Below are positions 6,001-9,000 of a stretch of DNA of 10,995 nt, in pieces. This stretch comes from a virus (Duplodnaviria; Heunggongvirae; Uroviricota; Caudoviricetes): the IMG/VR virus record IMGVR_UViG_2537561516_000008, positions 1 to 10,995 of that record. One strand, 5' to 3'. A program made the position numbers. The stretch's first letter is position 1. Each line of letters opens with the position of its first letter.

Positions 6001-9000
6001 GTAGCTTCCTTTAGTTGCTTTCTCTGCCTTTTCACGCAGTGCCTGATAATTAATTTCGCTCACTTCGAACCTCTCTGTTTACTGATAAGCTCCAGATCCT
6101 CCTGGCAACTTGCACAAGTCCGACACCCCTGAACTGCCAGGCGTCGCCGCTCATCTATCGGATCGCCACACTCGCAACAATGAGTAGCAGATGGGGCATT
6201 ACAATCGGATTTGTATTTTTGCAGGGAGAAATTGCGCTGCAATTCTTCGATTTCAGCGGCGTTGTCGATGATATCTGCCATTTTCCTTTCCTTCAGGCAT
6301 GAAAAAAGGAGCCGAAGCTCCTTTGGTTTTATAATTCGAATTGCCTTGCCCGCAGGCTTTTCAGCATTGGCATGGCCCGCTGGATAACGGAACTTGACAT
6401 GTCGAGACGTGTTACCTCCCTCAGTAGCGCGTCTCTGTTTTTCGTCACCGCATAGAAGGTTTCAAACGCAATGTCATACAGTTTACTCGCGTATGATGAG
6501 TTAAGTTCCTTCAATATCGGGTACAGACGTTTGCAGATGTCCTGCGCATTCTCCATCTGTACCTGCATATAGCAAAGGAGGATGATTTCTTCGTCTGTGA
6601 ATTGCTGCGCTGGTTGCATGCTGCGAAGTTTTTTCTCGCACTCGATGAAGTATCGGCGTATCTGACGGCCTTTTTCGTTACGTTCAACCATCGCCAGTTC
6701 TTTGGCTGTGTCGAGAGTTAGGTGGTAGTCCTTGCGGTTGTGACCGCCTCTACCAGATGTTTGCTTTCCCAAATTGGAAAGCAAAATATAGTCTTGATTT
6801 TCAATGAATTCGTATTCTGAAATGCGATTTGTAATCCATGCCGCAAACACCTTTTTCACGCCTAAAAAAGCATGCAGATCGCGGGCATTGCAGAGTAGGG
6901 CTATTTCGTTGTCGATAGTGCCGTTGAATACGGGGATGAGTTGACTGGTCATGATGACCTCCTTATTTGTTTAGTTTATAACCGCCAGTTAGTAGCTGGC
7001 GGTCGGGTGTCAACTGAGCCAAATAAGAAGCTCTGGGCATATTCCCCTTGCGGGTGTTGTATTACGCCTCTCCACCCGACCTTTGTACGGATGTAACTAT
7101 GCCAAATTGCAGGCATAAAAAAGCCGCAAAGCTATCGGGTGCGGAGACCGCTTATTTGTTCAGTGCGATCAGTATGCGATAGCTCTGGCGGATTTGTCAA
7201 ACTATGAGAATATTGATGAACGAGTGACGGTATATACCCCACCCAGACAATTAACGTAAATTCACATCGTAAACTTGCGTTAATTGTCTGAAATATCAAG
7301 TTAAATCCCCTTAAATCTTTGGGGCACTATTGGGGCAAAATGTGGTTGTTTGGGGCATATTTGGGGCAAAAAAGAACGTATAAAGAACGGTGTAAAATCG
7401 ATTTCTTCATGGTTAAAATGAGGTCTAACATATTGAAAAGTATATGCTCTTGGACGATCTTCGGTAATTCTGTGTTTTTAATGCTTCATGGAATGGACAT
7501 GGTAGTAGGTTGCTCATGAATGCACTCCCTTGCGAAGTTGGTCTGCACAATGCAGCAGGGCGTCCGTCGCATATTTAAGCCTCACTAGCTCACCATCATC
7601 CATTCCCGCGAGATTCGCGTGTTTAACGAACGCCGAGCAAAGGTCATTAAACGCCTGCGCCCGTACTTCAGCCAGAAAAGCATCGGTGGCTGGCATATTT
7701 CCTGTTGCCTTCATGGCCTCCAAAATAACCAGAACGCCATCTCGCCCAACCACCTCAGCGATAACCTCGGTGTTGTCGCCAACAACATCGCATAATGCCT
7801 GAACTGCCTTACGAGCCAGCTCATTCTCCGCCGCAAGCGCCGAAAACTTCTCGTGTGCCAACTTAACAGCCGAATCAGCCTGCTTAATTGACTCAATCGC
7901 TTTCTGCTGGTCTTCGGACAGAGCCGAAATCTTGGCCTCCGCTTCAGCAAATTTACGCACAAGATATTCAGCGTTTGTTTCGTTAACCTTTAAATCACAT
8001 GGGATGCATTTACCTTTCAGAAATCCATCCATCTCAATTAGTGTCATTTGTTTCATTTCTTCCCACTCCGCCACATCGCATTCAGATATTTGTTATCATT
8101 AACAGAGCAGAAACTCTTTCGCTTAAGCAATTCCTCTCTCGATGGCATTGGCTTTACGCGTTGGCGAATAATCATTTCTGCCGGAAGAATGCCGGGATTG
8201 TATGCAAGTCCTCTCATGGTAAATTCCTCAGTTATTACTGATAGCGCCATAGCGTGAGCGGTAATTACGCAGGCGCGGGTCGATATATTCAGGGAATTTG
8301 TCTATTGTCGCTTTTCGCAACGGTCTCATTGCTGTTTCGTTTGTTCGGTCCTTCTCCTGTTTTAGCGCGAGTTGTATATCGCGTCGGTACATCCGTTCTG
8401 CTTTTGTTTCTGGTGTCAGAGCAAGAAACGCGTCGAAATTGTTTTTGATATTTCCCAGCACCTCCGCCTTGGAGCTACCGGAGCAGTTGCGCGGGTCATC
8501 CGCACCATACAGAGGCGCTGGCATAATGGGAGCCTTATTTTCAGTAATCAGAAAGGAGGGTAATCGTTCTGGCTGTAACCATAATCATCTGCATGATTAT
8601 GGCTTACGTTTTTAGAGCGATTGTCTTTATCTTTGAGGCTGGCAACCATGTTGGCGATAGTTTCTGGTTGCTTGCCTTCTGCCTTTTCTTTAAGGGTTTG
8701 ACCTGTTTGTGCAATAAACGGGATGCGTATTTCCATCTGGTAGCTGTCTGCGCCAGTCTTTTTGTTTGTGGTTAATACTTTCTGGAGCACTAACCCGATT
8801 TTCTTTCCATGAAATTCAGGTGCAACAAATTTACTGGCGGAAACCATATGTTGCGTTAATTGTCCAATCCCGGCACACCCCATCATGGCGTGAACGACAT
8901 TTGCGCCAAATTTGTTTTCCGTGCCGTCATTTTTCTGAACACAGACGCTAAGATACTGGATTTTACGTCCGTCGTCGGATTCTCCAGAAAACTCAATAAA

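Follow-up and report, generated by a model that had tools for sequence, protein, structure and literature searches.

A probable orphan attachment-site arm of 933W-family Shiga toxin phages in the early-left region of a lambdoid prophage

A probable arm of the 933W-family attachment site upstream of an antirepressor gene

The region studied here, positions 7205-7491 of a 10,995-bp stretch of viral DNA (the whole of which, positions 1 to 10,995 of IMG/VR record IMGVR_UViG_2537561516_000008, is called the window), carries an inverted repeat and an array of direct octamers, TTGGGGCA. Both features are housed in a non-coding gap of 561 bp between an eaE-like gene and a gene for an AntA/P22_AR_C antirepressor, ant2. 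We consider it likely that the region is an orphaned arm of the phage attachment site (attP) of 933W-family Shiga toxin (Stx) phages, that the octamers are integrase arm sites, that the palindrome is a hairpin resembling the sib element of phage lambda, and that recombination at a secondary site is the most likely origin. The element is therefore best viewed as a relic of a known kind of site, built on the plan of a lambda-type attP, and not as a new regulatory device.

Positions 7205-7491 are 85-97% identical to the arm of attP or attR distal to the integrase gene (int) in 933W, VT2-Sakai, Stx1 phage, P13374 and Min27, and in part to that of Fels-1. Comparison of 7205-7513 with phage records gave matches in 79 records, nearly all of 933W-family Stx phages, at the extreme end of prophage records; the features annotated there are named 'attR core', 'attachment site' or 'duplication due to insertion'. 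Homologues finish at the annotated core or attachment site in 933W, Stx1 phage, Stx1_9793 and Fels-1. In 933W the match terminates at the 7-bp attR core, and int starts 22 bp past the attL core. The native order in 933W-family phages, on the minus strand, is xis, int, the 7-bp core GTTTCAA, the arm and the ant cassette, and a circular Stx1-phage record has the order ant, the homologue of 7205-7491, the attachment site, int and xis. The arm unit is complete in every E. coli record that has it (217 of 217).

The attachment sites of 933W, VT2-Sakai (Sp5) and Stx1 phage in GenBank are of the same sequence family as the arm in the window. Annotation in these records is limited to the core and a repeat and leaves arm-type sites and hairpin uninterpreted; the depositors' label for the repeat that overlaps the octamers is 'arrangement g / gg; region III' (Stx1 phage and Stx2 phage I). 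In 933W, VT2-Sakai and Stx1 phage the arm belongs to a working attP or attR, whereas in the window it is orphaned. A functional attachment site is not present in the window, which has another sequence in place of the core and lacks both the other arm and the cognate int. A resident integrase fragment (91-774) is unrelated to 933W Int. Because the core is replaced, P22-like sequence follows and the resident integrase is unrelated, we interpret 7205-7491 as an attachment-site arm alone.

The features of the arm and its borders, in window coordinates, are as follows.

7171..7200, minus strand: promoter of the ant cassette, TTGACA-N18-CATACT; left boundary of the arm
7205..7491, minus strand: probable int-distal (P-type) arm, now orphaned, of a 933W-family attP; homology ends at the annotated 7-bp core
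7244..7290, minus strand: hairpin of 47 nt (22-bp stem with one 1x1 mismatch and a loop of 3 nt); probable homologue of lambda tI/sib
7319..7326, plus strand: octamer 1, TTGGGGCA; putative arm-type integrase site
7330..7337, plus strand: octamer 2, TTGGGGCA, 11 bp from octamer 1; putative arm-type integrase site
7350..7357, plus strand: octamer 3, TTGGGGCA; putative arm-type integrase site
7361..7368, plus strand: octamer 4, TTGGGGCA, 11 bp from octamer 3; putative arm-type integrase site
7371..7389, plus strand: direct repeat AAAGAACG, two copies 11 bp apart at 7371 and 7382; partly kept in Fels-1
7442..7464, plus strand: core-proximal box ATATGCTCTTGGACGATCTTCGG, kept in Fels-1 and present as CATGCTCTTGGGCG in distant relatives
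7491..7497, no strand assigned: position of the former 7-bp crossover core, GAATGGA here and GTTTCAA in attP and attR
7492..7500, minus strand: what is left of a P22-like ead/Ea22 gene, its first three codons (ATGTCCATT), joined to the attachment-site arm

Octamers as putative arm-type integrase sites

A first-pass annotation of this DNA had reported four direct octamers at 7319-7368, and all four are exact copies of TTGGGGCA. Their starts are spaced by 11, 20 and 11 bp, so that they are grouped as two copies of a 23-nt unit that lie 31 bp apart, and no further exact copy occurs in the 10,995-bp window. The number of octamers varies among phages by a 31-bp unit: there are four in the window and in Stx1 phage, six in 933W and eight in Min27. 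Accordingly, the 31-bp unit with its two octamers (7318-7371 in the window) is present in two, three or four copies, depending on the phage. Fels-1, whose arm is just 73% identical, retains four octamers in register.

Octamers are also found across the core, in the 3' end of int, where both 933W and Fels-1 carry TTGGGGCA and CTGGGGCA at a spacing of 11 bp. Because these two copies necessarily lie in different reading frames, it is the DNA of the pair that is constrained. When viral contigs were scanned for TGGGGCA-N4-TGGGGCA, 120 loci were identified, 68 of which encode a homologue of 933W Int (23-100% identity), and in all 68 the octamer pair is no more than 80 nt from the end encoding the Int C terminus. 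Five distant relatives with an intact attP or int-distal arm (L099, L132, L199, L183 and L198) share a layout of two plus two octamers and a box, CATGCTCTTGGNCG, and the gene beside their arms is not ant. The motif repeated in both arms, which is unlike the core, can be written (N)TGGGGCA, with 4-8 int-distal copies and a pair at 11-bp spacing in the other arm. The integrases of 933W and Fels-1 contain an Arm-DNA-bind_2 domain (PF12167, E 6e-26) and a Phage_integrase domain (PF00589).

We infer from these sequence comparisons that the octamers are arm-type integrase sites of an attP arm, and not an activator or iteron array, because they travel with the attachment site and the integrase family and not with ant. 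Arm sites of the 933W/Fels-1 integrase family appear not to have been described before.

The arrangement resembles that of lambda attP, in which a distal hairpin is followed by arm-type repeats at 100-175 bp from the 7-bp core, by the core itself and then by other-arm repeats that overlap the end of int, with int and xis beyond the other arm as in the 933W-type order. The lambda arm-type Int sites are P1 and P2 in the P arm and P'1-3 within the 3' end of int. Lambda Int likewise has two DNA-binding specificities and an N-terminal arm-binding domain. The 933W-type arm differs from that of lambda in its motif, (N)TGGGGCA, of which 4-8 copies are arranged in 11-bp pairs. The arm motif of lambda is of the C/AAGTCACTAT type, and the N-terminal domain of lambda Int belongs to the family Arm-DNA-bind_1, as opposed to Arm-DNA-bind_2 in 933W Int. 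Unlike lambda attP, the window has an arm without core, other arm or cognate int.

The first-pass annotation had proposed that the palindrome and octamers form an operator with an activator or iteron array, or a read-through barrier, for the cassette that contains ant2 (cassette 2). Protein-binding architecture remains a suitable description; the assignment to cassette 2 does not hold, since the elements track the attachment site. Positional conservation in related prophages is strong, but it is found at attachment sites. Control or insulation of the ant2 promoter by these elements is very unlikely in our estimation. They do lie upstream of that promoter (7200-7171), and the arm adjoins the ant cassette in all 217 E. 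coli records. However, homology between cassette 2 and the second ant cassette of the window (cassette 1) begins exactly at the promoter -35 hexamer (7200) and runs on through the structured leader, and the features at 7244-7368 are therefore just outside the duplicated cassette. Cassette 1 has the same promoter without the 7205-7491 region, an absence that the annotation had recognised, and the cassette occurs without the arm in about 167 of 384 E. coli records. Conversely, octamers are present in relatives without ant (Fels-1, L099, L132 and L199) and inside int across the core. Measured from the likely transcription start, the centres of the elements are ~100 and 155-204 bp upstream, not where a repressor would sit, and a copy number that ranges from 4 to 8 across phages also counts against control of the ant promoter.

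Direct repeats at roughly helical spacing could in principle be iterons of a replication origin. We give this explanation almost no credence: the neighbours are the eaE-like gene and ant with no initiator gene nearby, the early-left operon is far from the O/P replication module, and the repeats are at attachment sites in every relative.

A link had also been drawn to a palindrome of cassette 1 at 3566-3586 with the same core sequence. It contains only an octamer with one mismatch, and such near-octamers occur at chance frequency in the window (12 observed, 10.2 expected), so this connection is dropped. Three of the one-mismatch near-octamers cluster at 629-672 in the 3' part of the resident integrase gene, and are accounted for by codons of the conserved MLGHELGG motif of the catalytic domain rather than by attachment sites. 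Small overlapping open reading frames (ORFs) at 7132-7299 (minus strand) and 7319-7519 (plus strand) were also discarded; their frames are broken in relatives, and because relatives differ by a 1-nt indel and by indels of the 31-nt unit, we regard them as non-coding. The previous statement that the region has no protein-coding potential is supported by these comparisons.

The AAAGAACG repeat is possibly a site for an accessory protein, perhaps an excisionase. A scan for the integration host factor (IHF) consensus gave one site with one mismatch in the arm (7426-7438), which is chance frequency window-wide, and no LexA box was seen when the window arm was inspected by eye. In the IMG/VR relatives L099 (330-400) and L199, whose integrases are ~70% identical, a dinI-like gene lies beside the attachment-site arm, with a LexA-box-like CTGT/G-N8-ACAG before it. 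Self-contained cargo genes appear to have a hot spot next to the arm.

The inverted repeat as a putative sib-like hairpin

The inverted repeat was described earlier as perfect over 13 bp, and indeed CAGACAATTAACG at 7244-7256 is matched by its exact complement at 7278-7290. With up to two mismatches allowed there are 4 matches where 0.27 are expected, a number reached in none of 200 shuffles. The repeat grows to arms of 22 nt that are 86% complementary around a 3-nt loop, that is, to a 22-bp hairpin. The predicted folding energy is -24.9 kcal/mol for the minus strand (z -6.6) and -20.4 kcal/mol for the plus strand (z -7.7).

In lambda, just one long hairpin lies immediately past the arm site P1, on the int strand at 27536-27585, and we take it to be the tI terminator and sib retroregulator. 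The minus-strand hairpin of the window aligns to it, the two sharing 14 of the 17 bases in the 5' arm, with an alignment score that was reached by none of 5000 mononucleotide shuffles and none of 5000 shuffles that preserve the hairpin. RNAalifold finds a single consensus structure for lambda-type and 933W-type copies, in which 6 of 20 pairs are changed on both sides and still paired. The position is also shared. In both the Stx1-phage attP and lambda the hairpin is distal to the arm-type sites on the int-sense strand, and its distance from the int stop is 229-275 nt in the four-octamer Stx1-phage attP, compared with 227-276 nt in lambda. The folding energy of the window hairpin is close to that of its lambda counterpart (-24.3 kcal/mol). 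Strand, side of attP, distance to the int stop, hairpin size and energy are therefore all the same as for lambda tI/sib.

There are differences as well. The 933W-type hairpin is associated with a different integrase family and is 28 bp from the first arm-type site, whereas the lambda hairpin abuts P1; the window hairpin, unlike that of lambda, has no U tract and is preceded by the eaE-like gene instead of int. A consensus terminator scan made no call at the window hairpin or at the lambda hairpin, and is uninformative because it also missed the hairpin taken as tI. A 15-mer scan for further variants of the hairpin recovered three haplotypes and otherwise chance matches, and a degenerate scan for sib-like 5' arms gave, among the matches listed, many lambda-type hairpins near contig ends and no intermediates.

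Sequence and position together lend moderate support to the palindrome being an element of the sib/tI type that serves int, not ant. The main alternative is that the region is indeed an attachment-site arm but that the palindrome acts as DNA, either as a site bound by a dimeric protein, accessory or regulatory, at the outer edge of the recombination complex or as a cruciform. Such a site is suggested by the perfectly symmetric arms, as a dimer-binding site would also select symmetric changes, and by the distribution and U-tract status of the hairpin that are described below. We nevertheless judge it unlikely, for the similarity to the lambda hairpin covers the inner stem, and compensatory changes are seen close to the loop as well, where a bipartite operator would have its spacer. 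The distance to the int stop, as in lambda, likewise counts against a DNA-level site, and no candidate protein for binding the palindrome is evident.

The junction at the crossover core

Homology to attP stops at 7491, which is core position 1, and homology to P22-like sequences (ST104, HF4s and HK106) starts at the same base; this P22-like part takes in the first three codons of ead and the eaE-like gene. The window as a whole is a mosaic that is phage-86-like at 3-6288, similar to the right end of 933W at 5605-7491 and ST104-like from 7491. At the junction the P22-like side retains CATG at the correct 7-bp spacing, with an overlap identity of only 3/7; the P22-like sequence at the start of ead, of the ST104/HK106 type, is CCACAGAATGGACATGG. 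This junction is common to about six of 5,426 genomes. In the junction scar (7491-7516), ATGTCCATT is in frame with sequence of the attachment-site arm and forms a 4-codon ORF, and the stop of the eaE-like gene is at 7514-7516.

When lambda Int integrates at secondary sites, the junction is at the edge of the overlap region, overlap identity is poor, and a core-type half-site is kept. The junction in the window has all three properties. It is unlike the lambda case in that there is one junction only, the partner junction being absent and presumably deleted. The pattern of sequence similarity suggests that the orphan arm probably arose when an integrase recombined a 933W-like phage into a secondary site.

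An alternative is that illegitimate or purely homologous modular exchange produced the orphan arm, and that the coincidence of breakpoint and core is due to chance. We take this possibility seriously but consider it less likely than integrase action. Lambdoid phages are highly mosaic, the window itself being a three-way mosaic, and the P22-like site is weakly similar to the core. However, in an intergenic region of ~570 bp a break would coincide with core position 1, to within ~1 bp, with a probability of roughly 1%, and the CATG at the correct spacing on the P22-like side also argues against coincidence.

Several observations weigh against our interpretation of arm, hairpin and junction. We found no paper on arm-type sites, the octamer or a sib element in 933W-type phages. 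The lambda hairpin at 27536-27585 is presumed to be tI/sib but is annotated as such in neither of the two lambda records. The hairpin consensus compares essentially two lineages, namely three 933W-type haplotypes and a set of near-identical lambda-type copies. The hairpin is absent from Fels-1 and more distant relatives, and is confined to the 933W clade. The commoner 933W allele of the 3' arm is UUAAUUUUCU, whereas the window has UUAAUUGUCU, whose T-to-G change makes the 13-bp arm perfect yet breaks the U tract; the earlier remark that no U-run accompanies the repeat is thus true of the window allele. Finally, the secondary-site origin that we infer involves a single breakpoint and weak similarity to the core (3/7, with CATG kept on the far side).

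Proposed mechanism and significance

In a complete attP, the N-terminal Arm-DNA-bind_2 domain of the integrase would bind the four octamers, and the integrase would bridge these int-distal sites and the matching pair in the 3' end of int to the core, forming the recombination complex. The palindrome would act as minus-strand RNA, as a diverged copy of the presumed lambda tI/sib hairpin. As it is just past the distal arm site, it is contiguous with int only in the circular phage, in which it may terminate int transcripts; on read-through pL transcripts it could instead be a substrate for RNase III, leading to decay back into int. The earlier suggestion of a read-through barrier is probably correct to the extent that the hairpin acts on read-through transcripts, and incorrect in assigning that action to cassette 2.

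Most likely, the orphan formed when a 933W-like phage recombined at a secondary site (ead) in the early-left operon of another prophage. Later homologous recombination in the shared ea22/dksA-like region would then have removed all but the arm together with ant, the dksA-like gene and a part of ea22. The octamers are now probably without a role for the resident phage. The pL transcript would still contain the hairpin, between the eaE-like gene and ant2, and may still be processed by it.

It is also conceivable, though we think it improbable, that the orphan arm is active, with the hairpin retro-regulating the upstream P22-like early genes and uncoupling ant2, and with the octamers binding the 933W-type integrase of co-resident Stx prophages. 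In that event, octamer binding could alter excision or integration of the co-resident Stx prophages, or provide a half-site for integrase-mediated exchange between prophages. On that reading, secondary-site recombination driven by integrase would be one source of mosaicism in lambdoid and Stx phages.

Assignment of these features to an attachment-site arm removes a false lead, as there is no new operator or iteron system here. For the large 933W/Fels-1 integrase family, which mobilises many Shiga toxin phages, it also yields an arm-site consensus that can be tested, namely (N)TGGGGCA in 11-bp pairs, and it suggests that sib-type control of int reaches beyond lambda-type integrases. An attachment half-site with a breakpoint at the crossover core is a concrete trace of how secondary-site integrase activity could build mosaic Stx prophages.

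Neighbouring genes and other RNA structures

The window corresponds to the early-left (pL) region of a lambdoid, Stx-type E. coli prophage, with genes on the minus strand. The interval between the eaE-like gene and the ant2 promoter is 309 bp long (7205-7513), as had been stated. The genes nearest to the arm, and the second ant gene, are:

2648-3301: second ant gene (cassette 1), with a homologous upstream region
6329-6952: ant2, AntA/P22_AR_C antirepressor gene
7514-8074: eaE-like gene, 186 aa, no informative Pfam match

The possibility that the 186-aa eaE-like protein is a decayed integrase was dismissed, as it has no similarity to integrases.

Rfam searches at E values up to 1 gave no match in 7205-7513. 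Elsewhere in the window there is a weak HgcC match at 963-1085 on the minus strand (26.7 bits, under the gathering score of 50; E 0.007) that is probably due to chance, and a full-length match to Lambda_thermo, the cIII thermoregulator, at 10207-10265 on the minus strand (88.5 bits), which is ordinary in a lambdoid phage.

Two matches to sRNA-Xcc1 (RF02221) exceed the gathering score, at 6993-7081 (69.1 bits) and 3313-3402 (65.4 bits), both on the minus strand. Each is directly upstream of an antirepressor gene, within the duplicated cassette of promoter, leader and ant. A paper on APSE phage places sRNA-Xcc1 upstream of an ORF6N (Ant-like) gene. These locations suggest that sRNA-Xcc1 acts in cis as the leader of antirepressor genes and is more than a trans-acting small RNA.

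The leader of ant2 (6953-7170, minus strand) is strongly structured (-80.6 kcal/mol, z -5.5) and includes a hairpin followed by U6 at about 7113-7150. In its minimum-energy fold, CACCCGAU is paired with the 5' strand of the closing stem of the Xcc1-like structure, and this modelled pairing is a possible alternative-structure switch, similar to an attenuator. A further, short stem lies between the Xcc1-like fold and the ribosome-binding site in each cassette (6975-7003 and 3297-3325, minus strand), and shows compensatory changes between cassettes, with CCGCCAG/CTGGCGG in one and TCACCAG/CTGGTGA in the other.

Cassette 1 interrupts a gene for an ASCH-domain protein after codon 13 (window 3530-3634, minus strand), in which VANLQLAVKGEYF corresponds to residues 28-40 of 933W p04. 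The TTTCCCC...GGGGAAA palindrome at 3566-3586 is right at the insertion junction of this cassette.

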